Shown here: positions 1 through 14,107 of the stretch, in pieces
Layout of the letters: the number at the start of each line of letters is the position of its first letter
Position numbering within the stretch: the first letter of the stretch is position 1
Assembly: GCA_963558405.1 (NCBI GenBank)
Contig: CAUWGC010000026.1
Span: 1 to 14,107, forward strand
Source of the DNA: an uncultured Clostridia bacterium
GTDB lineage: Bacteria; Bacillota; Clostridia; TANB77; CAG-508
Length of the DNA stretch: 14,107 nt
Direction of reading: 5' to 3'
Notes under the pieces: model-generated
What the model saw: the letters and a program-made list of their open reading frames with translations, nothing else
The model's database searches: none
Told to the model about the DNA's origin: nothing
Translations under genes and position numbers: made by a program

Positions 1-118
1 TTCATAATTCTGTGGATAACATTCCGCAAATTTTCAAAAAATACCGAAACTTAAATTTTGTGCCACTTGCTTTTCCTAAAATTTTATGATATTATATTTT
101 TAGTTTTGTTTTTTGGAG

Positions 119-400
119 TTAGATATGCGCTTTTTGCATTTCCAACTCTTTTATTTTTATATTTGTATATTCTAATGCATTAAAATAATCTTTTTCTAAT
201 ATTGTAGCTTGTATATTTTGAAATGTTTCTCTTTCTTCATTTACAGCTCTGTAATATCTTTTCTCTAATAAATTACATATATCTATACAGATTTCGATAT
301 ATATAAGTATTTCATTTCTTATTGCATCATTATTATTTAATATCCACTGTAATTTTAAACTGATTTTTTTAAGATAAAATTCTATTAGTTCTTTTTCCAA
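119..400 (-). CDS. Hypothetical phage early protein (93 aa)
   Basis: TTG start preceded by AAGGAGG SD; co-oriented with the early operon; no recognisable motif. Confidence 0.75.
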   Translation of the reverse strand: MEKELIEFYLKKISLKLQWILNNNDAIRNEILIYIEICIDICNLLEKRYYRAVNEERETFQNIQATILEKDYFNALEYTNIKIKELEMQKAHI

Positions 401-417
401 CTAGATTTCCTCCTTTT

Positions 418-525
418 CTATAATAAATTAATTAATATATTGCTTATAGTTTCTGCTATATAACAACCTAATATTGGTAACCATATTAGGCTTGTCCCTA
501 ATAAAAATTCTTTAAACTTTTTCAT
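418..525 (-). CDS. Small hydrophobic peptide (35 aa, MKKFKEFLLGTSLIWLPILGCYIAETISNILINLL)
   Basis: Not in the ORF track. ATG at 525 with GAAAGGAG SD and TAG at 418-420; packs tightly between neighbouring genes. Confidence 0.7.
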   Translation of the reverse strand: MKKFKEFLLGTSLIWLPILGCYIAETISNILINLL

Positions 526-544
526 TAGTTAACTCCTTTCGTTT

Positions 545-667
545 CTATTTGACTTGTGTATAAATTAATGTAAGATAATCTTCTACTCTTTTTATTATTT
601 GTTTTTTTTGCTCTTCTGTTGGTGGATTTTTCACAATCACTTTAAACTTTCTTTCTTTATTTTTCAT
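545..667 (-). CDS. Small hypothetical phage protein (40 aa, MKNKERKFKVIVKNPPTEEQKKQIIKRVEDYLTLIYTQVK)
   Basis: Not in the ORF track. ATG at 667 with AGAGGTG SD; TAG at 545-547. Confidence 0.7.
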   Translation of the reverse strand: MKNKERKFKVIVKNPPTEEQKKQIIKRVEDYLTLIYTQVK

Positions 668-787
668 AACCAGCACCTCTCTATATTTTATTTAGAAAGT
701 TTGTACTAATTGATTATTTTTTTTGATATAATTACCTCGAAAGTGAGGTAGTATTATGACTGAATTTATTAGAAAATACTCATAAGG

Positions 788-985
788 TTAATAAGAGTCT
801 TGAAGATTAGTATCAATCTTTTTTAATGATGGTATAACTGCTTCGGAAACTTTTGCACCATCTATTTTTATTTTAGAAAACTCTTCTCTAATTTGTGCCA
901 ATTGTTGTTTTGTAAGTACCGTATCATTACTTTTGAACTCTTTTACAAAATCTTTTATTTCTTGTACACTTCCTTCTATTTTCAA
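788..985 (-). CDS. Hypothetical phage early protein (65 aa)
   Basis: TTG start with a purine-rich SD (AGGAGGGAGAAGG); co-oriented with the early operon. Confidence 0.75.
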   Translation of the reverse strand: MKIEGSVQEIKDFVKEFKSNDTVLTKQQLAQIREEFSKIKIDGAKVSEAVIPSLKKIDTNLQDSY

Positions 986-1045
986 CCTTCTCCCTCCTAA
1001 CTTACTTATTTTACATTCCTGCTATATTCTTAAAATTCAATATTT

Positions 1046-1144
1046 CTAACAATTATAGAAACGTAGAAATATAAATATTCCAAATAAGATTACGTTTATC
1101 CATTGAGTTATCACTAGTACTAGTAATAACTTTTTTCTGTCCAT
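1046..1144 (-). CDS. Small single-TM membrane peptide (32 aa, MDRKKLLLVLVITQWINVILFGIFIFLRFYNC)
   Basis: Not in the ORF track. ATG at 1144 with AAGGAGG SD; basic N-terminus followed by ~22 mostly hydrophobic residues. Confidence 0.7.
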   Translation of the reverse strand: MDRKKLLLVLVITQWINVILFGIFIFLRFYNC

Positions 1145-1164
1145 CAGCTTGCCTCCTTTATGCT

Positions 1165-1192
1165 TTGCTTTTATTTACCACTATGCTATAAT
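1165..1192 (+). promoter_or_regulatory. sigmaA-type promoter for the rightward gene at 1216
   Basis: TTGCTT (1165-1170), 16-bp spacer, TG-C-TATAAT (1184-1192). Confidence 0.65.
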
Positions 1193-1215
1193 TTTGTCGA
1201 AAGGTGGTGATTAAT

Positions 1216-1419
1216 TTGGATATTAAAAATATATCTTCTAAATCAGATGTACATAATCATCTTGAAAGTAATATCGAAGCCTATAAGGAAGAAATAAAAG
1301 ACATAATTAAAAACAGTAACTTTACTTCTTCGCAACAACAAGATTTAGAGAATATAGCTCGACAACATTACTATTCTTTACGTGACATCATTAAATCTAT
1401 TGAAATATTAAGTCAATAG
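1216..1419 (+). CDS. Hypothetical protein (67 aa), oriented opposite to the early operon
   Basis: The SD AAGGTGGTGA (1201-1210) favours TTG at 1216 over GTG at 1204. It has its own promoter, and its 3' end overlaps the convergent 1413-1652 gene by 7 nt. Confidence 0.75.
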   Translation: MDIKNISSKSDVHNHLESNIEAYKEEIKDIIKNSNFTSSQQQDLENIARQHYYSLRDIIKSIEILSQ

Positions 1420-1652
1420 TTATTAATAGTAGCAAGTTCTGTCCCATCAGAATTTGCTATTATTACTTTTGGCGGTCTAGCATTCCAATCTTCTGAAACT
1501 GCTTCTTTATATTTCTTTGCGATTTGTTTAGCCTTTAATAAATTTTTTTCATTAAATTCTTTACTAGAAAAATCTTCTTCTAATAATTCTTCTAGTAACT
1601 TTTTTCTTTGTTTCAAATGTTCTTTATTAATATTTTGAAATTTTATCTCCAT
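1413..1652 (-). CDS. Hypothetical phage early protein (79 aa)
   Basis: ATG with AAGGAGGT SD; first gene after cro. Confidence 0.75.
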   Translation of the reverse strand: MEIKFQNINKEHLKQRKKLLEELLEEDFSSKEFNEKNLLKAKQIAKKYKEAVSEDWNARPPKVIIANSDGTELATINNY

Positions 1653-1696
1653 CTCAGCTTACCTCCTTTGTTTTTAATGCACGTTTTGTGTTTTCA

Positions 1697-1882
1697 TTAT
1701 ATAAAAAAAATATTAACATCAAATTGAGGGTATTTTTTCTTGAGTTTAGTTAAAAATTCTCTACTTGGCTTTCTTGCTCCAGTTTCTAACTTGTCATATA
1801 ATGATTTTGAAATACCTATCGTATTTGCAAATTCTTGAGTAGTAAGGTTTAGGGAATTTCTAAAATCTTTTAATGCTTTCAT
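1697..1882 (-). CDS. Cro-like XRE HTH regulator (61 aa)
   Basis: HTH_3 pattern (LTTQEFANTIGISKSLYDKLETGARKPS). The AGGAGGTG SD supports ATG at 1882 rather than 1924. Divergent from the repressor gene. Confidence 0.9.
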   Translation of the reverse strand: MKALKDFRNSLNLTTQEFANTIGISKSLYDKLETGARKPSREFLTKLKKKYPQFDVNIFFI

Positions 1883-1912
1883 GTTTTCACCTCCTGCACA
1901 TTTCGTGTTTTT

Positions 1913-1941
1913 ATAATATAACACAGTTTGTGCTTTGTCAA
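1913..1941 (-). promoter_or_regulatory. Lytic (cro) sigmaA promoter
   Basis: TTGACA (1941-1936), 17 bp, TATTAT (1918-1913); the operator at 1921-1933 lies in the spacer. Confidence 0.8.
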
Positions 1942-1989
1942 TAGTTTTTTTAAAATTTTTTTATTTTTTTACACAAATTGTGTTTTATG

Positions 1990-2018
1990 TTTACTTAACA
2001 CAATTTGTGTGATAAAAT
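1990..2018 (+). promoter_or_regulatory. Lysogenic (repressor) sigmaA promoter
   Basis: TTTACT (1990-1995), 17 bp, TG-A-TAAAAT (2010-2018); the operator at 1998-2010 lies in the spacer. Confidence 0.7.
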
Positions 2019-2042
2019 AATAATAATTTAGGAGAGTGAATT

Positions 2043-2375
2043 ATGAAAGGAAATAGAATAAAAAAATTAAGAGAAGAAAAGAATATGAAACAAGAAGATT
2101 TAGCTAGGGTTCTTTCTATTTCTTCTAGTGCGGTAGGGATGTACGAAAGGGATGAGCGAGAGCCAAACGATGAAATAACACTTAAGCTGGCCGAATACTT
2201 TGGTGTATCAACAGACTATTTACTTGGCAAATCCGATATACGTAATCCAGAAGAACTCAATAAAGTACAATTTGCTAATGCAGGAGGACTTGATACAAAA
2301 GGACTTGATGAAGAAGATTTAGAAGAGTTACAAAGACAAATAGATTATATAAAGAAAATGAAAGGTAAAAAATAA
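2043..2375 (+). CDS. CI/ImmR-like XRE-family phage repressor (110 aa)
   Basis: N-terminal HTH_3 (IKKLREE...QEDLA...VGMYERDEREP...LAEYFGVSTDYLLG). The short C-terminal domain has no S24 peptidase, consistent with cleavage in trans by ImmA. Confidence 0.92.
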   Translation: MKGNRIKKLREEKNMKQEDLARVLSISSSAVGMYERDEREPNDEITLKLAEYFGVSTDYLLGKSDIRNPEELNKVQFANAGGLDTKGLDEEDLEELQRQIDYIKKMKGKK

Positions 2376-3047
2376 ATGGAAGAAGATAATAATATTCAAA
2401 GAAATAAAGCAATAATACATAAAGATAATTCATTAAATAGGCTTAATTTATCTTTTCTTAAGCATATTGATCTAGAAGAATATAAAACTAGTCATTTATT
2501 ATCTTATTGGATAAATGATTATGCTAATTATCATGATGAAGAAAAATCATTTGATACAGGTAAACTTATAACTTTTAAAAGAGGGACTATTGTCAAAGCT
2601 AATTTAGGATTTAATATTGGTCATGAATTAGGAGGTTTACATTATTGCATTGTTTTAACCAAAAATGATACCCCTAAAAATGGTACATTAAATGTAATTC
2701 CATTAACTTCTAAAGATAAAAAGTATAAAGGTTGTGTTAATTTAGGAAGTGAAATATATGAATTATTAATTCAGAATATACAAGCTGAACAAATATCTTT
2801 ACGTGAATTAGTAAAAGAATCTACAAATCAAGAAATTACTGATGAAATGCAAAGAAAATTAGAGTATATACACAAACTTAGTACAGAAGTAAAGAAAATG
2901 AAAAATAATAGTGTTGCATTATTAAATCAAATAACAACAATTAGTAAACAAAGACTATTTGATATTGATATATTACATAAAGTAAGATTATCTTCCTCTA
3001 CACTTGATATATTAGATAAAACAATTATTGATTTTTTCACAAAATAA
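2376..3047 (+). CDS. Long PemK/MazF-family endoribonuclease-like protein (223 aa), with no adjacent protein antitoxin gene
   Basis: PemK motifs FKRGTIVKANLGFNIGHELGGLHYCIVL, NVIPLTSK and ALLNQITTISKQRL, plus a ~65-aa N-terminal extension and a helical insert. The ATG directly follows the repressor TAA. Confidence 0.85.
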   Translation: MEEDNNIQRNKAIIHKDNSLNRLNLSFLKHIDLEEYKTSHLLSYWINDYANYHDEEKSFDTGKLITFKRGTIVKANLGFNIGHELGGLHYCIVLTKNDTPKNGTLNVIPLTSKDKKYKGCVNLGSEIYELLIQNIQAEQISLRELVKESTNQEITDEMQRKLEYIHKLSTEVKKMKNNSVALLNQITTISKQRLFDIDILHKVRLSSSTLDILDKTIIDFFTK

Positions 3048-3073
3048 AGAGGAGAGTTGCTATTGAACCCTCC
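3041..3073 (-). terminator. Intrinsic terminator of the predicted sRNA
   Basis: GGAGGGUU-CAAUAGC-AACUCUCC followed by a U-rich tail. The one non-Watson-Crick pair is G-U on the minus strand but A-C on the plus strand. Confidence 0.65.
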
Positions 3074-3117
3074 AAAGTGTTTCTGACGCCCGACTACTAT
3101 ATAGTAGTGGGAAAGTT
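3041..3117 (-). ncRNA. Predicted ~75-nt structured small RNA convergent on the PemK gene (candidate antitoxin)
   Basis: Perfect upstream promoter, 5' hairpin at 3089-3111, terminator hairpin at 3051-3073 followed by UCUUUAUUUU. No ORF; GC-richer than the flanks. Confidence 0.65.
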
Positions 3118-3123
3118 AAATAT

Positions 3124-3152
3124 ATTATAACAAATTATATTTAACTTGTCAA
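3124..3152 (-). promoter_or_regulatory. Perfect-consensus sigmaA promoter pointing back at the PemK gene
   Basis: TTGACA (3152-3147), 17 bp, TG-T-TATAAT (3132-3124). Confidence 0.85.
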
Positions 3153-3215
3153 ATATTTGACATTACCTATTATACTCATAAATGAAAAAAATATTACATA
3201 TAGAGGTATCTTATT

Positions 3216-3648
3216 GTGGAATTAATAGATTTAGAAAATGTAGCTAGTCGTGAAAAAATTTGTATCAGCAATTTTAAAATGAGAAAAACAAAGGCTAGAA
3301 TAATTAAATATAATAACACTTGTATTTTTATGGACTATTCCAAAATACATACTTACACAGAAGAAAAATGTTTATTAGCAGAAGAGCTTGGTCACTATTA
3401 TTATTCTGCTTACTATACATTAAATTCTGATAAAGAATTTATAGACAAACAAGAATATAAAGCAATGAAATGGAAATCGCTTATTTGTGTGTCTTTAAAT
3501 TCAATTTTAAGCTGTTTTTATAAACGGAATATATAATTTATCAGATATTGCAGAAGAATTAAATGTGGAACCTAATATGGTAGAATTTGCATACAATTAT
3601 TATAAAGATAATAACCAATTAAAGACAAATGCTTTTGATAGCATTTAA
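3216..3648 (+). pseudogene. ImmA/IrrE-family metallopeptidase (anti-repressor) split by a +1 frameshift near 3511-3533; ~143 aa if joined
   Basis: LAEELGHYY (HEXXH variant) and KQEYKA motifs. Frame 0 stops at 3536. The typical C-terminus GIYNLSDIAEELNVEPNMVEFAYNYY continues in the +1 frame to TAA at 3646-3648. Confidence 0.8.
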
Positions 3649-3697
3649 TTTTCAAGAACATTAACAAACAAAAGTTTTACATAAGGAGATGTTTTAT

Positions 3698-5140
3698 ATG
3701 TTACAAAGAGGAGCTTGCTATATTCGTGTATCTACAGATAATCAAACAGAATTTAGTCCAGACGCACAATTAAAAGCAATTCGTAAGTATGCTGAATTAA
3801 ACAATATTATTTTAAATGATGAATATATTTTTGTTGATGAAGGAATATCTGGAAGAAAAGCTGATAAAAGGCCTGCTTTTCAACAAATGATAAAAATTGC
3901 TAAATCTAAGCCCAAAAAATTTGACGTCATACTTGTACATAAATTTGATAGATTTGCTCGTTCGAGAGAGGACAGCGTAGTATATAAATCTCTACTAAAA
4001 AAAGAATGTGGTATTAAAGTTATTTCTACGACAGAAAGTATTGAAGATGATAAATTTTCTGTTATTCTTGAGGCTATGTTAGAAGCAATGGCAGAATATT
4101 ATTCTTTAAATTTAGCAGATGAAGTAAAAAAAGGAATGACTGAAAAAGCTACAAGAGGACAATATCAGTCTTCTCCACCATTTGGCTATAAAATGCAAAA
4201 TAAAGTACTTTCAATTATTGAAGATGAGGCTAATATTGTAAAATTTATATTTGAGAAATTTACTTCTAAAGAAATGAATGTATTGCAAATTGCTAAATAT
4301 GTAAATAACTTAGGTTATAAGACACATAGAGGAAATAAATTTGAAAACAGGACTATAGAATATATTTTAACAAATCCTGTTTATATTGGTTATGCTCGTT
4401 GGACTCCTTCTGGGAAAATAAAAAGAGGTCAAACTAATAAAGAAACCATAATAGAAAAATCTCAACATGAACCAATAATCTCTGAAGAATTATTTCAAAA
4501 AGCCCATGAAATAATCGAAAAAAACAAAATGATACATAAGAAATATTTTAAAAGCACAAATTCTAATTTACACTGGTTAAATGGATTAATTAAATGTAAA
4601 TTGTGTGGACATACACTAGTTAGAAATCAAAAAGATTTTTATCAATGTAATGGTTATACTAAAGGAAAATGCTTAAAAAGTCAGCTTGTAAAAATAACTA
4701 ATATAGAAAAGGCAATACTTGAACAAATAAAAAATGATTTTACAAATAATATAAATATTAATGTCAAATTTAATTTAGATAAAACTAATAATAATGACGT
4801 TTCTATTATATTATCTGAATTAGAAAAACTTAAAGAAAAAGAAGTTCGTATAAAAGATGCATATATTAATGGAATAGATTCTATAGAAGAATATAAAGAA
4901 AACAAGCAAAATTTAGAGAAACAAAATAAAATGTTAAATAATCAATTGATGAAACTACAAAGTAAAAAAGATATGAAAAAAAGAGAAACAATTATAAAAG
5001 AACAACTAAAAACAATTTACAATATTTTAACTGATGACAGAATCGATATGCAAAGAAAATATGAAGTATCACATATGATTATAGATAGAATAGATTTCAA
5101 TAGAGATGATGGCATTTTAGAGCTTACTTATAAAGTATAA
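3698..5140 (+). CDS. Large serine recombinase (phage integrase), 480 aa
   Basis: Catalytic YIRVSTDNQ, DEGISG...RPAFQQM, KFDRFARS; recombinase domain (PPFGY...ILTNPVYIG...HEPIIS); zinc ribbon CKLCG...C...C; coiled coil. The AAGGAG SD (3683-3688) favours ATG at 3698. Confidence 0.96.
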   Translation: MLQRGACYIRVSTDNQTEFSPDAQLKAIRKYAELNNIILNDEYIFVDEGISGRKADKRPAFQQMIKIAKSKPKKFDVILVHKFDRFARSREDSVVYKSLLKKECGIKVISTTESIEDDKFSVILEAMLEAMAEYYSLNLADEVKKGMTEKATRGQYQSSPPFGYKMQNKVLSIIEDEANIVKFIFEKFTSKEMNVLQIAKYVNNLGYKTHRGNKFENRTIEYILTNPVYIGYARWTPSGKIKRGQTNKETIIEKSQHEPIISEELFQKAHEIIEKNKMIHKKYFKSTNSNLHWLNGLIKCKLCGHTLVRNQKDFYQCNGYTKGKCLKSQLVKITNIEKAILEQIKNDFTNNININVKFNLDKTNNNDVSIILSELEKLKEKEVRIKDAYINGIDSIEEYKENKQNLEKQNKMLNNQLMKLQSKKDMKKRETIIKEQLKTIYNILTDDRIDMQRKYEVSHMIIDRIDFNRDDGILELTYKV

Positions 5141-5154
5141 TATCAAATGCCATC
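5108..5154. repeat. 47-bp imperfect palindrome at the prophage/host junction (att region)
   Basis: Perfect 10-bp outer arms GATGGCATTT (5108-5117) and AAATGCCATC (5145-5154); inner TACTT/AAGTA around 5131. Confidence 0.6.
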
Positions 5155-5250
5155 TGGACCACCATATTGTGAAATAATAAATTTAGCAAGTCTTGGATTT
5201 GGGCATTTTATTTTTACTGGATACTGTAATACTTTGTTATATGTCCACAT
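5143..5250 (-). pseudogene. cotJC: 5' fragment of the spore coat manganese catalase gene cotJC, interrupted by the prophage
   Basis: Translates to MWTYNKVLQYPVKIKCPNPRLAKFIISQYGGPDGI*, the CotJC N-terminus. Starts 2 nt after the cotJB stop and diverges where GGPDG should continue as E-L. Confidence 0.93.
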
Positions 5251-5252
5251 TA

Positions 5253-5633
5253 TTAGTTCCCCCTTTCCCATGGCCATGGTTCTTCCAACCATCTCCATTT
5301 ATTACATGGAAAATAGATTGTAAGTGGTCCATATACCTTTTGATATTTATCTTTTAAATCTTTTAATCTTTTGCAATATTCTCTATGCAAACAAAGAGCT
5401 TTGGGACTATCAGGATGTGTATCTAAATATTGTGCTAATTCTACAATAGCAAATTCTAATTCTCTTATTTGCATAAGCATTTCTTCTCTTACTCTATTTT
5501 TTTCTTGACATTCACATTCATCCATAATATTGGCATTTTCTATTTCTTGTACAGTATTATTTTGATTATTCATTGGCATAAAATTTCCACATCCACAGTT
5601 TCTATTTTCTTCTTTTTCATTATAGTTTAACAT
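5253..5633 (-). CDS. cotJB: Spore coat protein CotJB, with N-terminal extension
   Basis: ELEFAIVELAQYLDTHP...YQKVYGPLT...WRWLEEPWPWE signature; lies between cotJA and cotJC. Confidence 0.93.
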   Translation of the reverse strand: MLNYNEKEENRNCGCGNFMPMNNQNNTVQEIENANIMDECECQEKNRVREEMLMQIRELEFAIVELAQYLDTHPDSPKALCLHREYCKRLKDLKDKYQKVYGPLTIYFPCNKWRWLEEPWPWERGN

Positions 5634-5980
5634 TTATTACATCCCTCCCCAATTTTATTTGTTGCTCTTATATAAGCTATTTCTTCCATTGATTGACCTG
5701 GCATATATGGTCTTACTAATTCTGGAAATATAGTTCCCATTTTAAGTCCAACACAAGGCACAAATGTTGTATTTATTATTTGTTGTGGAACATAACTTTG
5801 AGCTAATATTGGTTCTGATGGAAAAGGATTAAACTCTTCTTCAAATCCACATTCGCAGTTTTTTTCTGAATTGTTGTAATTTGCTACATTTCCTACATTA
5901 TTGCATATTGTTTCTAAATACTCGTTATTACATGTTTTTTGACAATTACAATTACAACAACATTTCCATTGACAATTCAT
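5627..5980 (-). CDS. cotJA: Spore coat protein CotJA, with Cys-rich N-terminal extension
   Basis: LAQSYVPQQ...GLKMGTIFPELVRPY signature; AAGGAGG SD; overlaps cotJB by 7 nt. Confidence 0.9.
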   Translation of the reverse strand: MNCQWKCCCNCNCQKTCNNEYLETICNNVGNVANYNNSEKNCECGFEEEFNPFPSEPILAQSYVPQQIINTTFVPCVGLKMGTIFPELVRPYMPGQSMEEIAYIRATNKIGEGCNKC

Positions 5981-6014
5981 CTGATAATTCCTCCTTATTC
6001 ATAAGTTATATTAC

Positions 6015-6044
6015 ATAATATGAGTTTTTTTTTGTTTTGTTACA
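6015..6044 (-). promoter_or_regulatory. Mother-cell sporulation (sigmaK-like) promoter of cotJABC
   Basis: TGTAAC-N16-CATATTAT matches the AC-N16-CATA-N3-T pattern. Confidence 0.55.
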
Positions 6045-6071
6045 AGATTTATTTGTTATATGGTAATTTAC

Positions 6072-6113
6072 AATAAAAAAGAAGAAAACTGTCTTGTTTT
6101 CTTCTTTTTTATT
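6072..6113 (-). terminator. Intrinsic terminator (possibly bidirectional) after the PP2C-like gene
   Basis: 18-bp perfect inverted repeat AATAAAAAAGAAGAAAAC / GTTTTCTTCTTTTTTATT with a 6-nt loop. Confidence 0.75.
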
Positions 6114-6118
6114 AAATA

Positions 6119-6967
6119 TTATACTTTTTTGTAGATAATCAAAGTTCGCTCAGGTTCCTCATTTTCTAGTATTTCTGGATTATTTAAAAGTGTTTCTATT
6201 TTCTTTGTATCAGAAAATAAGTTTTCACATCCATCTGAATATGCACATATATACTTTACATTTTTTAAATCTATTTTATATACATCTATATAATATTCTG
6301 CATTTTTTTCTCCTGATAAAACTCCAAAAGTAATATCTTTTCCATTTTCCTTTTTACTAGGGTTATTCCTATATTCACTTCTTATTAATTTTCTATCTTT
6401 AGGATTTTCCCAATCAAAGTTATGCAATTTTTCGTAATCTTCAAACCATTTATGATTATTTATTGTTGTAAAAAGCAAATTATATTTTTCATCAAATAAA
6501 CTAATATGACAATCCCCTATTGAAAAAGCATATAAAGTATTATCTGTTATATATCCTCCAACAGAAACACAACAATAATAATCTTCTTTTAAGTAATCAA
6601 TACATCTACCTTTGTTTATATCAATTAGTTCATTATTTGATTTTACTATTGCTTGTTTTATTTTTTCTTCCGAAATGTCATTTTCTTTGATATTTGAAAT
6701 ATTGTTAACAAATGATTCTGCTATAATTTTTGCTGCTAAATATGCTCCACTTGGGTTTGGATATTCTTTTATAAATTCTATTGCTTCTTTTTCATTTTTA
6801 GGTTTTTTTATAGGATTACCATTAATATTATCTCTTGTCACTCCATCTGCTATACAAAAGCAATTATCCTTAATTTTATAATAGTCTTCTGAAACAGGTT
6901 TTAAACCATATTTCTTAAAAATAGATATATCATACATCTTATCATATACTAATTTGAATTCTTTCAT
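6119..6967 (-). CDS. PP2C/PPM-family phosphatase-like protein (282 aa)
   Basis: SED, CIADGV, SIGDC and AYSDG motifs in PP2C order. Confidence 0.75.
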   Translation of the reverse strand: MKEFKLVYDKMYDISIFKKYGLKPVSEDYYKIKDNCFCIADGVTRDNINGNPIKKPKNEKEAIEFIKEYPNPSGAYLAAKIIAESFVNNISNIKENDISEEKIKQAIVKSNNELIDINKGRCIDYLKEDYYCCVSVGGYITDNTLYAFSIGDCHISLFDEKYNLLFTTINNHKWFEDYEKLHNFDWENPKDRKLIRSEYRNNPSKKENGKDITFGVLSGEKNAEYYIDVYKIDLKNVKYICAYSDGCENLFSDTKKIETLLNNPEILENEEPERTLIIYKKV

Positions 6968-6975
6968 TTTTAAAA

Positions 6976-8013
6976 TTATCCTTCCACTTCTTTTTTTAGT
7001 ATTTTAAAAATTCTTTCTTCTGCAAATTTATTATCATATGATGTAAGTTTTATTTTTAATAATTCATCAACGTATTGCTCAAATTGATTGATGTTATCAC
7101 AAAATTTAATGTAGTCTAAATCTTTTAACCAATTATAAGATTCTATTATTTTATGATCCATGCTACTAAATACTATACAAGGAGTTTCTGTTATTGCAGA
7201 AAATATCATTCCATGTAATCTATCAGTTACTACAATTTTTGCTTCTTGAAATTCTTTAAATTTATCTTCCAATAACATTTCTCTGTTTTGGTCTGTTATA
7301 TTTGTAATTTCTACTTTATTATTTAAATTAAAAATGTGAAATCCATCATACTTATTTAACATTTCTTGTCTTAATTCTGGTATATTGCTATCTAAATTCA
7401 TGTCAGATAACTTATATTTTTTTACTTTTTCTTCAAGGACTTTTTTTATTATTACTTCATCATTATTATTTAATACTTTTTCTTTATCAACTCTAAGTAA
7501 TAACAAAGCTCCTTCTCTATTATTTTTATTGCTTGTCCTTTTTAATGTCATTACAATATCTGGAGTAAGATATACTTTTGCATTTTTAAAATTTTCTTTT
7601 ATAAAATTGTATGATTTATTTTCTCTTGCTAATATTACTAAGTGTTGGTGTTTATTATATATTTCCTTTGAAGTTTCTAGTTCTTTTTTACCCTTTTCAG
7701 TATTTGAAAAATATGCAGTTTGAGGAAACATAATAATTTTATTGTTTGGAAATAACTTTATTACTTCTCTTCTTCCATATTCTGGTCTGTCATAAGTATC
7801 TCCAAAATTACCTCCACCATGTAACATAATAATATCATCATCATTTATATATTTTTTTACTTTACCAATACATAAACTTAATAATTCCTCGTGAACTTGA
7901 TACAATTCAAACTCTGGAAAATATTTTTTTAACATTTCTTTTTCCGCCATAAAAATTGCTTGGTCACCTAAATTTCCATGATGAGGTTCTCCAATAATTA
8001 TTATCTTTTTCAT
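6976..8013 (-). CDS. Polysaccharide pyruvyl transferase (EpsI-like), 345 aa
   Basis: GNLGDQAI, HGGGNFGD, FPQT, ARE..SY, PDIV and VVTDRLHGMIF motifs. The GGAGGA SD supports ATG at 8013. Confidence 0.9.
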   Translation of the reverse strand: MKKIIIIGEPHHGNLGDQAIFMAEKEMLKKYFPEFELYQVHEELLSLCIGKVKKYINDDDIIMLHGGGNFGDTYDRPEYGRREVIKLFPNNKIIMFPQTAYFSNTEKGKKELETSKEIYNKHQHLVILARENKSYNFIKENFKNAKVYLTPDIVMTLKRTSNKNNREGALLLLRVDKEKVLNNNDEVIIKKVLEEKVKKYKLSDMNLDSNIPELRQEMLNKYDGFHIFNLNNKVEITNITDQNREMLLEDKFKEFQEAKIVVTDRLHGMIFSAITETPCIVFSSMDHKIIESYNWLKDLDYIKFCDNINQFEQYVDELLKIKLTSYDNKFAEERIFKILKKEVEG

Positions 8014-8031
8014 ATCTTCCTCCATTATTTG

Positions 8032-9948
8032 TTATTTTATAATTGTATCTATTTGTTTTAAATAATCGTTATCCTTTAACTCTTGAGTTTGATTTCCTCC
8101 CTCAACCTCGTTAGTATATTTATTTTCTATTCTTTCACGTTTTGAAACATTTCTTCTATACCATTCATATTCTATATCTATATGACCCATATCTAAAGCT
8201 TGATAACCTTCTTTAGCTAAGTCATAAGCTAATACTGTAGCTGTTGGTCCTAATGCCAATATAATAAGTACATCCTTAGGTTCTTGTTTTAATCTATTTA
8301 TAATTTCATCATATTTATTAAAAGCATCTTCTGCTGGACATAATACTCTTCTTACAGATTTGCATCCTTCTAATAAATCATTTCCAACTCCAACCCCTGT
8401 TTGTTCACCTTCACAAACTACTACGTCTTTATCTTTCCATATTTCTTTTATTATAGAAAAATACTTGCCACATTCACTTCTATCCTTATGTCTTATATAT
8501 GGTCTAGTTAAATTAGCTGTGCAATATTCCATGTTATCATTTATATATTTAAGCCATGTTTTTCTGGTTTTATACATGTTATCAATCCAAAATGCTTCAC
8601 TTTCAAAAGTTAAATTTTCAAATTTATTTATAACATCTGGTATTCCAATTAAACAGAATTCTTGATTATCTGCTAAAATACCTTTTAATCTTTCAGCTAA
8701 TTTTGAATTATGTTCTTGAAATTTTAAATCTTTATCAATGATTATATCAAGTTCTCCATCTCCAAAACGAGCAATGGATTTTCCTTCTTTTATTTTTATT
8801 AAAGATTCTTCTATTCCTAATATTGTTATATTACTTTTTTCCATTTCTTTAAGTAGTTCTTCTTTTTTATGTAAAAGTTCTATATCCATTTTAGTTTCCT
8901 CCATTTCTCTATATGTATCTGCATTTGGTTTAGACATTTTTTCTTTTAATTCCTTTGGTAATATTTTTCTTACTTGATTTAAAATTTCGCAATATCTTAA
9001 AGCTTGAGCATAATCTTTTTCCTCTATTGCATTTATAATGTATTGAACAGATTTAAATATAGTTGGTATTTTTAAATCATTACTAAGCATATAAAACCAT
9101 TTCATCTTATCTAATACTTCAATTCTTTCTTCTAGTGTTAATCTTGTTGAATCTATAAATTTATATAGTATATAATTCATACTTTTAGCATAAAAAAATC
9201 TATAAAAATCTAAACGATTATTCTCTTTAAAATTTTCGTATATAATTTTATACGCTTTATTTATTCCCATAAAATATTCTTTTGAACAGCTATTAGAAAT
9301 AGAATCAGAATATCTCATTCTATAATTGTACATTATTTTTGGCATATAATATACTTGTGAAGATTTTATAAAGCAATATGTTGTGAAAATAGCATCTTCT
9401 GCTGGAACTCTTTCAACAAACTTCATTTTTAATTCTTCCAAAAAACTTCTTCTAAAAATTTTGTTCCAAACAGTTGAATTCATTATAAAGAAGGAATTTT
9501 TGTAATCTTCTATAGAAAGTTTAAATTCCTTGTATTTATCTTGATCAAAGACAGGTTTTTCCCATTTAGTACCGTCTTCATCTATATATATATAATTTCC
9601 AACAACATATTCTGCATTTGTCTTTTCTATTTCTTTATAAAAATTTTCACAAGCATCAAGTTCAAATTTATCGTCAGAATCTAAGAACATTATATATTTT
9701 CCTGTTGCTAAATCTAATCCAGTATTTCTAGCTCCTGATAGTCCTTTATTTTTTTGATGAACTACAGTAATTCTATTGTCTTTTTTTGCATATTCTTCAC
9801 ATATATCACCTGAAGAATCTTTAGATTCATCATCTATTACAATAATTTCTAAATTTTTATAAGTTTGATTAATAACTGAATCTAATGCTTCTCCCACATA
9901 TTTTTCTACATTGTATACTGGTATAATAACTGTTATTTTATCTGTCAT
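8032..9948 (-). CDS. Fusion of a GT2 glycosyltransferase and a C-terminal GT-D fold (DUF1792) glycosyltransferase, 638 aa
   Basis: N-terminal IIPVYNVEKY...ARNTG...FLDSDD; C-terminal SIARFGDGE, TRPY, GVGNDL, LALGPTATVLAYDL and DMGHIDIEYEW. The GGAGG SD supports ATG at 9948. Confidence 0.9.
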   Translation of the reverse strand: MTDKITVIIPVYNVEKYVGEALDSVINQTYKNLEIIVIDDESKDSSGDICEEYAKKDNRITVVHQKNKGLSGARNTGLDLATGKYIMFLDSDDKFELDACENFYKEIEKTNAEYVVGNYIYIDEDGTKWEKPVFDQDKYKEFKLSIEDYKNSFFIMNSTVWNKIFRRSFLEELKMKFVERVPAEDAIFTTYCFIKSSQVYYMPKIMYNYRMRYSDSISNSCSKEYFMGINKAYKIIYENFKENNRLDFYRFFYAKSMNYILYKFIDSTRLTLEERIEVLDKMKWFYMLSNDLKIPTIFKSVQYIINAIEEKDYAQALRYCEILNQVRKILPKELKEKMSKPNADTYREMEETKMDIELLHKKEELLKEMEKSNITILGIEESLIKIKEGKSIARFGDGELDIIIDKDLKFQEHNSKLAERLKGILADNQEFCLIGIPDVINKFENLTFESEAFWIDNMYKTRKTWLKYINDNMEYCTANLTRPYIRHKDRSECGKYFSIIKEIWKDKDVVVCEGEQTGVGVGNDLLEGCKSVRRVLCPAEDAFNKYDEIINRLKQEPKDVLIILALGPTATVLAYDLAKEGYQALDMGHIDIEYEWYRRNVSKRERIENKYTNEVEGGNQTQELKDNDYLKQIDTIIK

Positions 9949-9979
9949 ATTTGTTCCTCCCTTTAAACGCTCTATAGCT

Positions 9980-10008
9980 ATTATACCATAGAGCAAAGCT
10001 TCTTTCAA
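9980..10008 (-). promoter_or_regulatory. sigmaA promoter of the glycosyltransferase operon
   Basis: TTGAAA (10008-10003), 17 bp, TG-G-TATAAT (9988-9980). The TTG used as start by the ORF track is this -35 element. Confidence 0.75.
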
Positions 10009-10077
10009 GCATTCTACTTATTCTTAATAATTAACATAAGGTTGTATATCCAAAATTTTCGATTTTTCCTATATAAT

Positions 10078-10120
10078 AAAAAAGAGGTTTCTATAACTTA
10101 GAAGTGAAACCTCTCTTTTT
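10078..10120 (-). terminator. Intrinsic terminator after the pyk-HAD gene pair
   Basis: AGAGGTTTC (10083-10091) / GAAACCTCT (10106-10114) stem flanked by A and T tracts. Confidence 0.65.
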
Positions 10121-10903
10121 TCATCTTTCTATATTATCTATTATACTTTGCTCTATATCGTATAAATTAATTAAGTGTCTTTGCATTATATTATGATACT
10201 CATTAAATCTTTGCCTAAAATCATTTAAATATAATCCATATTGTGATTTTTTATCAAATAATTTTTCTAATTCTTGATATACCATTTTCAAAGTAGGATC
10301 TTTACTATAGTCTTCTATAGTATGTAATATTTCTAAACTTTGTTCTTTAGAAAAATTGCTTTGTTTTTTTCCAAAACATCTTCCCATTTGATAAATAGAT
10401 GTTGGCTCTACCATTGTAGGAAGTAAAAAGAAATTTACTTCTTTATTTGGAGCATCATCTGTTTTATATAATTCTTGTAGTTTTAGAAACTCTTTTGGAT
10501 TATTTTCTATAAAATAGATTTGTTTGTAATCTAGCAAAGTAACAGGTTTATTATTGTTTTTATATATTTGATATTCTCTTGAATTTAAATACATATTAGA
10601 TTTTGCAATATTATTTTCAATATTTATTACATGGTCAAAAGGATTTTTTATTTGCTTTTCTTGCATCTTCTTAAAAAACATTTCTGTAATACTATTGTTA
10701 TCCGAAGTCCATAAAATCACATTAAATTCTTGATGTTGTTCTTTAAGCTTAGAAATTTTTTCTAAAAATTCTACACTACCTGGTCTTAGGAACATCATGT
10801 AACTTCCATTTTTTGAACAACATCCTCCATCTGCTAAAGTTCCACCTAAATCTATTACGATTACTTTTTCTTTTTGTACTGTTGAATCCTTCACAAAAGG
10901 CAC
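10121..10903 (-). CDS. NIF/FCP1-like HAD-superfamily protein with degenerate motifs; start codon uncertain
   Basis: VIVIDLGGTL, LRPGSVEFL, ILWTS and FIENNP occur in HAD motif order. Confidence 0.6.
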   Translation of the reverse strand: MPFVKDSTVQKEKVIVIDLGGTLADGGCCSKNGSYMMFLRPGSVEFLEKISKLKEQHQEFNVILWTSDNNSITEMFFKKMQEKQIKNPFDHVINIENNIAKSNMYLNSREYQIYKNNNKPVTLLDYKQIYFIENNPKEFLKLQELYKTDDAPNKEVNFFLLPTMVEPTSIYQMGRCFGKKQSNFSKEQSLEILHTIEDYSKDPTLKMVYQELEKLFDKKSQYGLYLNDFRQRFNEYHNIMQRHLINLYDIEQSIIDNIER

Positions 10904-10910
10904 ATCCTTT

Positions 10911-12350
10911 TTATAGTTTTAAAACTCCTCCAATACTTCTGTTAACTTCATCTTTGATTGTTTCATCTTCTTTTAAAATAGAAGCTCCACCAGCAATAAC
11001 AACTGTATCTCCTTCTGCTAATTTTCCTTGTTCCTTTAATTTCTCAATTCCTATTTTTAGCATATGATTTACAGTATCACCTTTCTTTAATAAAAATGGA
11101 TGTATGTTCCAATATAGTGCTAATTGACGATATGTACGTTCATTACTTGTAAATGCATAGATTGGACATGCTGGTAAATAACTTGCAATTATTCTTGGAG
11201 TATCTCCACATTCTGTATATGCAATAATAGCTTTTGCATCCATTTGCATTGCTGTAAAGCAAATAGAATAATTTAAATTAAATTCATAATTTAATGATTT
11301 TAAATCATATTCTCTATTTCTAAATCTCTTCCAATATTTTATGTTTGATTCAATAGCATCTGCTATTTTACTCATTGTTTTAACACATTCTACTGGATAT
11401 TTACCCATTGCACTTTCTCCAGATAGCATTATTGCCCCTGTTCCATCAAAAATTGCATTCGCAACATCACTTACTTCTGCTCTTGTAGGTCTTGGATTTT
11501 CTGTCATACTCTCTAGCATTTGTGTAGCTGTTATAACAATTTTTCCTTCTCTATAGCATGATTTAATAAATTGTTTTTGTACGATAGGCACTTGTTCTAA
11601 TGGTATTTCCACTCCCATATCTCCACGTGCTACCATAATTCCATCAGAAACACTTAAAATTTCTTTTTGGTTTTCTATTCCTTCTTGGTTTTCTATTTTA
11701 GCAATTATTTTTATTTTATCTCCGCCGTTTTCATTTAATACTTTACGTATATCTAAAACGTCTTGTTTTCTTCTTACAAATGAAGCAGCTATATAGTCAA
11801 AATCTGCTTTTACAGCATCTTTTAAATCTTGAATATCTTTTTCTTTTAAACTAGGTAAATTTAATTTTATACCAGGTACATTAACTGTTTTTCTATTTCC
11901 TAATTTAGCTCCATGTGTTATAACACAATGAATATCTTTGTCTTCTACTTTTTCTACTTCTAATTCTATTGAACCATCATCAATTAAAATTTTTGTTCCC
12001 TGTGTTACATCTTTATAAAGTTCTTTATAAGTAACAGATACTTTATTTTTATCTCCTTCGATATCTTCATTTACAAGTACAAATTTTTCTCCTGTTACTA
12101 AAAATACAGGTGCTTCTTTTAATTTTCCAGTTCTTATTTCTGGTCCTTGTGTATCTAATAATAACGCAACTGGAAGTCCAAGTTCTTCTCTTGCTTGTTT
12201 TACTGCATTTATAAATTTTTCTTGTTCTTTATATGAACCATGTGAAAAATTAATTCTAGCAACATTCATTCCTGCTTTAATTAATTCCTTTAAAGTTTCT
12301 ACCTCTCCACTTGCTGGACCTATTGTACATACTATTTTTGTCTTTCTCAA
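10911..12350 (-). CDS. pyk: Pyruvate kinase (479 aa)
   Basis: RKTKIVCTIGPAS, ARINFSHG, DTQGPEIRTG, IAKIEN, MVARGDMGVE, ATQMLESM and PTRAEVSDVANA motifs; TTG start with SD. Confidence 0.98.
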   Translation of the reverse strand: MRKTKIVCTIGPASGEVETLKELIKAGMNVARINFSHGSYKEQEKFINAVKQAREELGLPVALLLDTQGPEIRTGKLKEAPVFLVTGEKFVLVNEDIEGDKNKVSVTYKELYKDVTQGTKILIDDGSIELEVEKVEDKDIHCVITHGAKLGNRKTVNVPGIKLNLPSLKEKDIQDLKDAVKADFDYIAASFVRRKQDVLDIRKVLNENGGDKIKIIAKIENQEGIENQKEILSVSDGIMVARGDMGVEIPLEQVPIVQKQFIKSCYREGKIVITATQMLESMTENPRPTRAEVSDVANAIFDGTGAIMLSGESAMGKYPVECVKTMSKIADAIESNIKYWKRFRNREYDLKSLNYEFNLNYSICFTAMQMDAKAIIAYTECGDTPRIIASYLPACPIYAFTSNERTYRQLALYWNIHPFLLKKGDTVNHMLKIGIEKLKEQGKLAEGDTVVIAGGASILKEDETIKDEVNRSIGGVLKL

Positions 12351-12416
12351 TGTAATTCCCCCTTACTTATTTACAACAATATACGATTTATTTCGACATT
12401 TGTACTCTAAGACCCT

Positions 12417-12446
12417 ATTATACCACACTTTTTCTAATATGTTCAA
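12417..12446 (-). promoter_or_regulatory. sigmaA promoter of pyk
   Basis: TTGAAC (12446-12441), 18 bp, TG-G-TATAAT (12425-12417). Confidence 0.6.
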
Positions 12447-12466
12447 CCTATATTTTTATTTTTTCT

Positions 12467-13168
12467 TTATTTTTCTTCTAATTCTCTTTTTTTATTATCT
12501 GTAATACAACTTTTTGGTTCTTTAAAACTTAAATACCAACTCATTCCATTTTTATTTTCTTCAATATACTTATTTCGTTCTTCTAATTCTATAAATGTTT
12601 TAGGAACAGGTATAATTACAGGATTACAAGGAACCCAATTTGCAGGTATAGCTACTTTTTCTCTATCTGATAATTGAAGAGCTTCTATGGTTCTTAATAT
12701 TTCTGGAATACATCTTCCAACTTGCATAGGATAAACTAAAATAGTTCTTACAATACCTTTATCATCTATAATAAACACATTTCTTACTGTTTCTGTGTTA
12801 CTAATATCCGATGCAATCATACCATATTTTCTAGCTATTACTCCATTTTGATCTGCTATAATAGGAAATGGAATTCTTATTCCAGTTTTGCAAAAAATAT
12901 CATAAATCCATGCAAGATGTGATGCATTGCTATCAACACTAAGTCCTATCAAGCATGTATTTAATCTTTCAAAATACTGTGATGCCTTTGCAAATGCTAT
13001 TATCTCTGTTGTACATACGGGGGTAAAATCTCCTGGATGCGAAAATAAAACTATCCATTTTCCTTTATAATTATCTAAAGATATTTGTCCCATAGTAGTT
13101 ATTGCTTCAAAATCCGGGGCTTTTTGCCCTATTCTTACATTTCCATTCATCATTAATTCATAATCCAT
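12467..13168 (-). CDS. Peroxiredoxin, Prx6-type (233 aa)
   Basis: FSHPGDFTPVCTTE active site, GLSVD, FPIIAD, VRNVFIID, YP...GR...EILR and PANW motifs. Confidence 0.93.
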   Translation of the reverse strand: MDYELMMNGNVRIGQKAPDFEAITTMGQISLDNYKGKWIVLFSHPGDFTPVCTTEIIAFAKASQYFERLNTCLIGLSVDSNASHLAWIYDIFCKTGIRIPFPIIADQNGVIARKYGMIASDISNTETVRNVFIIDDKGIVRTILVYPMQVGRCIPEILRTIEALQLSDREKVAIPANWVPCNPVIIPVPKTFIELEERNKYIEENKNGMSWYLSFKEPKSCITDNKKRELEEK

Positions 13169-13212
13169 ATATAAACTCCTTTCAAGCTATAAAGCTCGTT
13201 TGATATTTATAT

Positions 13213-13243
13213 ATTTTATGAAACATAATGTTTAATGGTTACA
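13213..13243 (-). promoter_or_regulatory. sigmaK-like promoter of the peroxiredoxin gene
   Basis: TGTAAC-N17-CATAAAAT, the same architecture as upstream of cotJA. Confidence 0.5.
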
Positions 13244-13280
13244 TTATTATTGTTACTTTAATTAAAAACTATTTAACTTA

Positions 13281-13667
13281 TTATTTTTTTATATTATTTG
13301 AACTTCTCCATTCTTTTTTTAATTCTTTTTCTTCTCTCTCATCCGCATATTCTTGTTCTACATCTATTAAATATATTTTATCTTTAAATTTCCCCTTCCT
13401 ACTACTTTTTATTTTTCTAGCTTTTTCAACATCTTCTGATGAAATATTTTTTAAATGCATTATTGCACTAATAACCTCTACTAAATCAGCAAGTTCCTCA
13501 ACTGAATGTTCTTCTATAAATTCATGAGCTTCTTCAAATATTTTTTTATCAAGCTCTTGCAAATATTCCTCATTATTTAATATTCTATAATTTGCTTTTC
13601 TGCCTTCTATTTTATTAATTTCTTCTGGTATTTTATCTCTAACTAATTTATTATATACATATTTCAT
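13281..13667 (-). CDS. MazG-like / PRA-PH-family nucleoside triphosphate pyrophosphohydrolase (128 aa)
   Basis: YNKLVRDKIP, EEAHEF, EELADLVEV and RKGKF motifs. Confidence 0.85.
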   Translation of the reverse strand: MKYVYNKLVRDKIPEEINKIEGRKANYRILNNEEYLQELDKKIFEEAHEFIEEHSVEELADLVEVISAIMHLKNISSEDVEKARKIKSSRKGKFKDKIYLIDVEQEYADEREEKELKKEWRSSNNIKK

Positions 13668-13689
13668 AATATCACTCCAATCCTCTTAT

Positions 13690-13718
13690 ATTGTAAAACA
13701 TTTGTTCTTATTTGTCAA
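13690..13718 (-). promoter_or_regulatory. sigmaA promoter with a LexA-like box in its spacer
   Basis: TTGACA (13718-13713), 17 bp, TACAAT (13695-13690); GAAC-AAAT-GTTT at 13707-13696. Confidence 0.7.
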
Positions 13719-13812
13719 TTATCTTTATTATTTTAATTTTATATATAATATGTTAATTAGTATTTGCATAAAGGCTAGTCCTATTGAAATTACTATAATT
13801 TTTATCTTATCA

Positions 13813-14050
13813 ATCGAGTAGAGGATAATTCTTAATGAATTTCTCCCCTCTCACACCACCACTCAAGCGGTTCTCGCAAATGGCGGTTCAATTTGTTATC
13901 GAATTTAGAACTCGGTTCGCTGCTTTTTCACTTTTAACAAGTATTATACAATCATCTGCATATCTTACAAAGTTTAGTCCTCTTGCTTCAAGTTCTTTAT
14001 CTAGTTCATTTAACATTATATTGCTTAGTAATGGGCTTAAGTTTCCTCCT
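13813..14050 (-). mobile_element. Group II intron remnant (class C / IIC type): RT fragment joined to domains V-VI and the 3' splice end
   Basis: DV-like GAACCGCC...GAACCGC...GGTGGTGTGAGAGG (13889-13847), a DVI stem and the terminal CTACTCGAT ending at 13813. Confidence 0.88.
13888..14049 (-). pseudogene. Group II intron reverse transcriptase fragment (RT4-RT5 region, 53 aa)
   Basis: GGNLSPLLSNIMLNELDKELEARGLNFVRYADDCIILVKSEKAANRVLNSITN*; no start codon, and an in-frame stop lies upstream at 14080-14082. Confidence 0.9.
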
Positions 14051-14053
14051 ATT

Positions 14054-14107
14054 TTATGGAAAGCTTTCCATAATATTGGTTATAGAAACTTTATTATTAT
14101 GGAAAGT
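14054..14107. repeat. dif-like 28-bp site (14063-14090) with extra half-site copies
   Basis: GCTTTCCATAA-TATTGG-TTATAGAAACT has an 11-6-11 layout. There is also a 20-bp palindrome TTATGGAAAGCTTTCCATAA (14054-14073) and another TTATGGAAAGT (14097-14107). Confidence 0.55.

Follow-up and report, generated by a model that had tools for sequence, protein, structure and literature searches.

An element with a large serine recombinase interrupts the spore-coat gene cotJC after codon 34 in an uncultured gut Clostridia bacterium

Results

The cotJ locus and the interrupted gene

The locus described here lies in a stretch of 14,107 nucleotides from an uncultured Clostridia bacterium (contig CAUWGC010000026.1, positions 1 to 14,107 of the forward strand; the whole stretch is called the window), in which the sporulation gene cotJC is interrupted by an element that carries a large serine recombinase (LSR). 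Element DNA takes up 1..~5148 of the window and host DNA ~5150..14107, and the GC content is ~25% across both. The features on the two sides of the break are as follows.

5627..5980, minus strand: cotJA, intact (Pfam CotJA PF11007, E 5.6e-11)
5253..5633, minus strand: cotJB, intact (Pfam CotJB PF12652, E 3.4e-25)
5143..5250, minus strand: 5' fragment of cotJC (translation; Pfam Mn_catalase positions 1-34 of 284)
5149..5151, no strand: crossover zone, that is, the host/element junction (per-position comparison with the 80 loci described below; blastn end points)
3698..5140, plus strand: LSR (integrase), 480 aa from the ATG at 3698, reading frame open from 3689 (Pfam, PHROG)
1..5148, no strand: integrase-proximal 5.1 kb of the element, which extends leftwards beyond the window (the 80 cotJ loci show no similarity to the left of 5149/5150)

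The ATG at 5250 opens a peptide of 35 residues that ends in QYGGPDG-I-stop. Its 34 native codons are without defect and equal, residue for residue, to the CotJC relative P0059; the Ile and the TGA come from the element. The peptide matches positions 1-34 of the 284 positions of the Mn_catalase profile with an E-value of 1.8e-8, above the curated cut-off. Full-length CotJC relatives (203-214 aa) continue as ...QYGGPDGE-L-A-A-S-L-R-Y, and the fragment, which ends before the Glu of GGPDGE, lacks the full ferritin-like fold with its metal-ligand residues. Judged by its translation, it is a piece of a gene and not a functional CotJC or member of the Mn catalase family. The first 34 codons stay joined to cotJA-cotJB and are severed from the remainder of the gene, and with the element in place CotJC cannot be made from this locus.

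The initial annotation of this DNA had read the break in the same way: cotJA-cotJB followed by a cotJC start that is right for 34 codons to QYGGPDG and then meets Ile-stop, a break that precedes the conserved Glu of GGPDGE, and a fragment that is not an active Mn catalase. Translation and the Pfam match bear out the first point and the full-length relatives and the 80-locus comparison the second, while the confinement of the match to the start of the profile argues for the third. It had also set the stop codon of the convergent LSR (5138..5140) 2 nt from that of the cotJC fragment (5145..5143), which is exactly what the coordinates give, and had started the LSR at 3698, a choice that is favoured since the relatives of the 480-residue protein are mostly 479-480 aa long.

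Base-level position of the junction

The junction was located by comparison with 80 cotJ loci from one scan of species-representative genomes. The query was P0059, itself a truncated form, and the best 80 matches, all covering query residues 1-136 or 1-137, were used; loci split at codons 34 and ~65 are outranked in such a scan. Nearly all of the 80 loci come from metagenome-assembled genomes of uncultured gut Clostridia, the best being Clostridium sp. CAG:571 with 90% protein identity. The DNA of the host relatives is just 70-82% identical to the window, so that none of the 80 loci belongs to the species of the window. Among the 25 best-scoring loci, blastn similarity stops at window position 5150 (gene nt 101) in 24 and at 5149 in 1. 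Position by position, all 80 loci share the bases of the window at cotJC gene nt 100-101; at nt 102, which is a synonymous third position, 3 of 80 do so, and at nt 103-105 none. This loss of agreement over nt 102-105 places the crossover at ~5149..5151, which is 9-11 nt past the stop codon of the LSR. A comparison with element-free relatives had been proposed in the initial annotation; the end of similarity at 5149/5150 is its outcome. The site is strongly conserved: the local peptide YGGPDGELAASLRYLSQ (17 residues) is identical in 77 of the 80 loci, and each of them contains exactly one match to a degenerate DNA motif for YGGPDG. The point at which the mobile element entered cotJC lies between gene nt 101 and 103, right ahead of the Glu of GGPDGE. 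The likeness of the fragment to cotJC is not due to chance.

A join of this kind could in principle be an artefact in which a phage contig and a host contig were assembled into a chimera, given that the relatives come from metagenome-assembled genomes, that the window may do so too, and that such assemblies can be chimeric. However, the join lies at the small distance from the integrase stop given above, exactly where LSR phages have their attP, and it falls inside a conserved motif. Moreover, the same GGPDG-I-stop junction peptide is found in an independent protein cluster, P0123 (13 member sequences, 2 contigs, the longest of 97 kb), which is 92% identical over the 51-aa frame (4 of 51 residues differ). 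The recurrence of the junction peptide in another host background argues against a chimera, and we consider an artefact very improbable. Two further proteins, P0002 and P0003, share the first 50 residues of P0123 yet read through GGPDGE; occupied and empty sites in one lineage imply that the element is polymorphic, i.e. mobile.

The large serine recombinase

The LSR gene is oriented convergently to the cotJC fragment. Its product has a Resolvase domain (PF00239, E 2.2e-29, residues 9-159), followed by Recombinase (PF07508, E 2.8e-21) and Zn_ribbon_recom (PF13408, E 1.8e-7) domains, and it matches the integrase family phrog_95 with an E-value of 1.1e-111. Variation at Ser12 and Arg10 of the RVST motif is absent or almost absent in 46 aligned relatives. 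The protein thus has the make-up of an LSR: a resolvase domain with a Ser nucleophile, Recombinase and zinc-ribbon domains on its C-terminal side, and an attachment site close to the integrase gene. A Lys/Glu-rich stretch at residues ~370-440 hints at the coiled-coil motif that lies within the zinc-ribbon domain of LSRs and controls directionality. The family is large, with 3706 proteins at E <=1e-30, and the 120 best-listed relatives show 61-96% identity and are nearly all 467-485 aa in length. In an alignment with 45 relatives of 62-96% identity, the LSR has the majority residue at 213 of the 214 columns that are >=90% conserved. The LSR is intact and not decayed.

The interior of the element

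To the left of the LSR gene lies a lysogeny module with a set of small genes.

3216..3536, plus strand: ImmA-like metalloprotease reading frame, 106 aa (phrog_87, E 8.1e-9, profile positions 41-137 of 227)
2376..3047, plus strand: PemK/MazF-domain protein, 223 aa (Pfam PemK_toxin, E 5.8e-15; phrog_1412, E 2.1e-45)
2043..2375, plus strand: cI-like helix-turn-helix repressor (Pfam HTH_3, E 1.2e-16; phrog_8, phrog_4 and phrog_3, transcriptional regulator/repressor)
1925..2042, no strand: divergent switch region with operator-like CACAA..TGTG palindromes and facing promoter-like sites
1697..1924, minus strand: cro-like helix-turn-helix protein, first gene of a leftward operon, divergent from the cI-like gene (Pfam HTH_3, E 6.6e-8)
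119..1652, minus strand: small leftward reading frames of 79, 65, 43 and 93 aa (lists of open reading frames)

The promoter-like sites of the switch region run from 1941 to 1913 on the minus strand (11/12 consensus positions) and from 1995 to 2024 on the plus strand (10/12). With integrase, repressor and cro-like switch together, the element is of the temperate-phage type, to go by its lysogeny module. The initial annotation had spoken of a prophage that splits cotJC. What stands is that an LSR-bearing element of temperate type interrupts the gene; the word prophage is owed to the lysogeny module, with no structural or lysis genes in the window.

The ImmA-like frame gave no Pfam match, and it reads EELGH where we take HEXXH to be the family motif; it is perhaps a degenerate protease that partners the repressor. 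A frameshifted ImmA gene was considered and rejected, the +1 continuation at 3538..3647 being without family support. The stop codon of the cI-like gene ends at 2375 and the PemK/MazF-domain gene starts at 2376, and the two possibly form a repressor-linked toxin or abortive-infection module; the PHROGs label for the family of the PemK/MazF-domain protein is 'antitoxin mazE-like'. No Pfam or PHROG match was obtained for the three of the four leftward frames that were scanned (79, 65 and 93 aa), and the Atlas gave no lead for those of 79 and 93 aa.

A candidate small RNA on the minus strand (3045..3152) lies between the PemK-like gene and the ImmA-like frame. It has a perfect TTGACA-17-(TG)TATAAT promoter (3152 to 3124) followed by two hairpins, the second of which is the sole terminator-like site in 1..6200. 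Its predicted fold has an energy of -20.5 kcal/mol (z -3.39), and none of 200 shuffles folded as well. No Rfam family was found for it; it is possibly an antisense or antitoxin RNA.

Relatives of the element were sought in 50,697 phage records. A megablast search with positions 1..5142 gave no nucleotide match. The nearest phage integrase, that of bajarodcaudo virus 3, is 46.6% identical to the LSR, and in the corresponding region of this virus no cotJC-like core lies beside int. A tblastn search with full CotJC matched 12 of the phage records, none of them beginning at residue ~35.

The gene content bears on a further explanation, namely that the insertion is a dead end: the element would be a decayed remnant, or the 3' part of cotJC would be lost, and the split would be an irreversible pseudogene. 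The visible part of the element is only 5.1 kb long, the window has no structural genes, and the ImmA-like frame is both short and altered at the presumed HEXXH motif, all of which would fit a remnant. The state of the LSR at the conserved columns speaks against this, as do the flawless 34 codons of the cotJC fragment and the intact cotJA, cotJB and switch genes. We regard a dead end as unlikely.

The cotJ operon as a landing site in related genomes

Among the 80 loci, cotJC is uninterrupted in 75, cut by contig ends in 2 and split in 3; a tblastn match to cotJB was found at 75. The cotJ operon as a whole is interrupted in 9 of the 80 species genomes, in 8 of which an LSR element or both gene halves are in view. 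This is a lower bound, as the scan query spanned residues 1-137 and the best 80 loci were chosen for an intact 5' region.

The three split genes (L052, L062 and L059) are all broken at codon ~139, after LAA and before the Glu of LAAEQKAR. In L052 (10409..17825) and L062 (10409..16985), the two halves of cotJC flank complete elements of 7.4 and 6.6 kb. These are not of phage type: they carry an LSR of 556 and 547 aa, respectively, with DUF4368, at the edge beside the 3' half, together with a small resolvase, a Rep-like protein and DUF6809. An 8-nt core, GCAGCAGA, is common to both junctions of the two elements, and excision in silico restores EDLAAEQKARAT in frame in both cases. L059 has the same left junction, its 3' half of cotJC lying >10 kb away.

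A second site is the 3' end of cotJB, where LSR elements are found in 5 of the 80 loci (L001, L007, L024, L045 and L076). The integrases at this site are 531-532 aa long and 52-69% identical among themselves, and the gene lies directly upstream of cotJC in the same orientation. At the junction, host DNA picks up again at the PWPW motif, within the final codons of cotJB. The element of L024 spans 5253..9973, and the left part of cotJB is 4.7 kb away. A sixth case, L075, is on a short contig and has a cotJB junction identical in kind.

A third site, at codons ~62-68 of cotJC (GTEE(L)), was seen in gut-sample records of the phage collection. MT839280.1 contains cotJB, cotJC residues 1-65 and a convergent LSR of 562 aa; MT837874.1 has an LSR of 532 aa and then cotJC from residue 59; in MT838203.1 cotJC begins at residue 61. 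In MT839831.1 (L084, 649..4002), cotJC residues 1-68 end at GTEELAH, and genes for a tyrosine integrase, a CHAP endolysin and a holin come next, so that both integrase superfamilies use this one site. Integrase identity is 42-97% within a site and <=31% between sites, the LSR of the window included. By the numbering that we take for the metal ligands of Mn catalase (Glu35, Glu66/His69 and Glu148), the three sites in cotJC would lie at metal-ligand motifs.

Overall, the cotJ operon serves as a landing pad with several sites in this gut clade, and each site has its own LSR lineage. A more far-reaching version would make the operon, in low-GC uncultured gut Clostridia, a dedicated docking platform with several sites. 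At least four LSR lineages and one tyrosine-integrase phage would each be specialised on a conserved motif of their own (the cotJB PWPW tail, and GGPDG|E, GTEE|L and LAA|EQ in cotJC), all would be excision-dependent switches that ride the germ line at no cost to the spore, and the element of the window would be the representative at codon 34. We think this version doubtful.

The notion of a hot spot is based on DNA loci with integrases in view; peptide fragments are used as supporting colour only. The protein collection holds 1384 short N-terminal CotJC fragments at E <=0.01, of which the 120 best-listed were tested for frame. The tails of 51 of these look like +1 or +2 frameshifts of cotJC, and tails of 3 residues are unreliable either way. 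Foreign tails begin at residues 60-70 in 21 fragments, at 30-37 in 12 and elsewhere in 15; 10 have no tail, and 11, among them the fragment of the window and P0123, have tails of less than 3 residues. The idea that such peptides define dozens of insertion classes was dropped, with 51 of 120 tails fitting a shifted cotJC frame.

Two side observations concern the same gene. The CotJC forms P0002, P0003 and P0151 diverge after YYTDHGV into a common foreign tail (GLE-S/Y-I-Q/L-KEFN), which hints at a further insertion site near residue ~110. In L024 a second, partial cotJC (13931..14341, residues 62-198) lies 3.3 kb downstream of the full-length copy, with a fragment of a DUF772 transposase and a ParE-like gene between the two; it is possibly left over from a previous insertion at the GTEE site that had carried in or regenerated a copy of the gene.

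Surroundings of the operon

Upstream of cotJA, one further feature was recorded.

6015..6043, minus strand: promoter-like site upstream of cotJA (consensus scan, 9/12)

It also reads AC-N16-CATATTAT, which we take to resemble a sigma-K pattern. The site is weak, as consensus matches in 1..6200 do not exceed those in shuffles (40 against 46.9 expected). CotJA and CotJB both have Cys/Asn-rich N-terminal extensions (e.g. CCCNCNC in CotJA), their Pfam domains beginning at residues 59 and 50, respectively. Four genes on the minus strand (5981..10910) separate cotJA from the pyruvate kinase gene and encode a PP2C-like phosphatase, a polysaccharide pyruvyl transferase, a fused GT2 and GT-D glycosyltransferase (658 aa) and a NIF-type phosphatase. 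The same gap is <1 kb in relatives such as L010, and the four genes may be a lineage-specific glycan cassette beside the coat genes, possibly for a spore-surface sugar. Rfam and tRNA scans of the window gave no match.

Discussion

Possible excision during sporulation

LSRs perform a conservative exchange with a 2-bp stagger in which no bases are gained or lost, so that excision would rebuild cotJC exactly if the 3' half is intact. They integrate unaided and need a recombination directionality factor (RDF) for excision. [quoted passage not shown] The LSR and an RDF encoded by the element could in this way rejoin the two junctions to give exact cotJC. As for the timing, analogy with SPbeta in spsM, skin in sigK and yin in yabG makes an SPbeta-like mode the most likely. 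The element would leave when the prophage is induced and, in addition, in the terminal mother cell, the place of cotJ expression; the coat would gain its catalase, and the spore chromosome would retain the element. We favour this mode tentatively, giving it slightly less than an even chance.

Several considerations speak for it. With the target motif conserved in 77 of the 80 loci, permanent loss of cotJC is argued to be costly. That specialised integrase lineages occupy the operon so often makes better sense if the cost disappears wherever CotJC is required. The complete elements of L052 and L062, whose removal in silico restores the frame, are a further point in favour. Also, those elements in mother-cell genes that have been examined by experiment show excision linked to sporulation or growth phase, as described in three reports (PMC4191935, PMC5595907, PMC10747680).

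Several observations weigh against excision in the mother cell. The far junction and the 3' half of cotJC lie outside the window. Packaging, capsid, tail and lysis genes were not found in the visible 5.1 kb of the element. Nor was an RDF recognised there, the small leftward frames at 119..1652 being the only candidates in view. The motif CATACAHT, which we take as the sigma-E-type -10 element, occurs 3 times against 2.05 expected, and 66 of 200 shuffles reach 3; one copy lies 92 nt upstream of the LSR gene and, by our reading, has no properly spaced -35. A sporulation promoter was therefore rejected as evidence for regulated excision, the motif occurring at chance rate. The complete-looking cI/cro switch could govern excision by itself. 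This uncultured lineage may not sporulate. Finally, coat formation in C. difficile is reported not to depend on CotJC-type catalases, which are redundant there (PMC11222575), and this makes a plain, tolerated knockout possible.

The last points lead to a competing account in which the element is an ordinary lysogen. Its integrase would use the conserved stretch of cotJC as attB, lysogens would lack this CotJC, and excision would occur only through induction of the cI/cro switch, without developmental control. Such an account draws on the operator-like repeats of the switch region, the chance-level sporulation promoter signal, the polymorphism of the element between close hosts, as for an active phage, and the dispensability of the catalases just mentioned; in addition, integrases often pick a conserved sequence merely since many hosts have it. 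Set against this, conservation of the gene across the clade is high, yet at least 9 of 80 genomes have an interrupted operon, which is hard to square with uncompensated loss, and the elements in mother-cell genes that were examined by experiment all showed excision linked to sporulation or growth phase (PMC4191935, PMC5595907, PMC10747680). Ordinary lysogeny is a serious possibility that nevertheless stays below an even chance.

Significance

Elements that leave sporulation genes in the mother cell are a textbook example of a developmental switch built from a mobile element. To our knowledge, almost all sporulation-gene elements that have been tested come from Bacillus and a few pathogenic clostridia. 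cotJC as a target is already in print, and the window is a further case, in uncultured gut Clostridia. It adds a clear example for this lineage, and the at least 9 interrupted genomes among 80 suggest how common the arrangement is. The multi-site pattern in the cotJ operon may be a new observation: a full-text literature search found no cotJC insertion positions, no cotJB as a target and no site-specific integrase lineages, although the supplementary table of a 2022 preprint (bioRxiv 10.1101/2022.02.25.481979) may bear on novelty. With one target operon, several sites and a separate integrase lineage for each, cotJ offers a tractable comparative system. It opens the questions of whether insertions are tolerated since they are reversible and of how integrase specificity tracks conserved coding motifs. 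The LSRs and their attachment sites are potential new orthogonal recombination tools.

Comparison with known systems

The known elements in sporulation genes are skin in sigK, SPbeta in spsM, vfbin, vrin, gin in gerE and yin in yabG. The initial annotation had allowed that cotJC may be a known integrase target, and the literature agrees: a skin-like element is present in cotJC of Laceyella sacchari (bioRxiv 10.1101/2022.02.25.481979), and cotJC is listed among frequent integration targets by Abe et al. 2013, as cited. These cases are likened to ours by the target gene alone; Laceyella is a Bacillus-class host and thus of another phylogenetic class than the window. Prophages are also described as adjoining cotJC-type genes in C. 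perfringens and C. difficile.

The skin element in sigK (recombinase SpoIVCA; B. subtilis, C. difficile, C. tetani, C. perfringens) likewise has a serine recombinase gene at its edge and splits a sporulation gene. It hits the regulator sigma-K, is mostly defective and usually has its recombinase beside the 3' fragment, as stated in the preprint (bioRxiv 10.1101/2022.02.25.481979). In contrast, the element of the window has hit the gene for a structural coat enzyme; its recombinase gene adjoins the 5' fragment in convergent orientation, and it carries a phage switch. The yin element of Clostridium botulinum is prophage-like and sits in yabG, a coat-maturation gene of the sigma-K regulon; it too has a serine recombinase, which lies downstream of the 5' fragment. 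For yin, growth-phase-dependent circularisation and shifted timing of sporulation were shown (PMC10747680), whereas the element of the window is known from its sequence.

The other elements at cotJ sites (L052/L062, L024/L076/L045/L001/L007, MT839280.1, MT837874.1 and MT839831.1) share with ours the cotJ operon, related uncultured gut Clostridia as hosts and an integrase at the edge of the junction. They differ in the site used and in their LSRs, which are <=31% identical to that of the window; one has a tyrosine integrase, and L052 and L062 hold small elements of non-phage type that carry Rep and resolvase genes. SPbeta in spsM of Bacillus subtilis (SprA integrase, SprB directionality factor) resembles the element of the window as an active-looking temperate element with a large serine integrase, inside a mother-cell gene for the spore envelope. 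The split is precise in both; in SPbeta it is reversible (PMC4191935), and here reversibility would follow from the chemistry of LSRs. The two differ in target gene, host class and integrase lineage, and experiments on SPbeta demonstrated both its excision and the promoter from which sprB is transcribed in the mother cell (PMC4191935), while the element in cotJC is described from DNA only.

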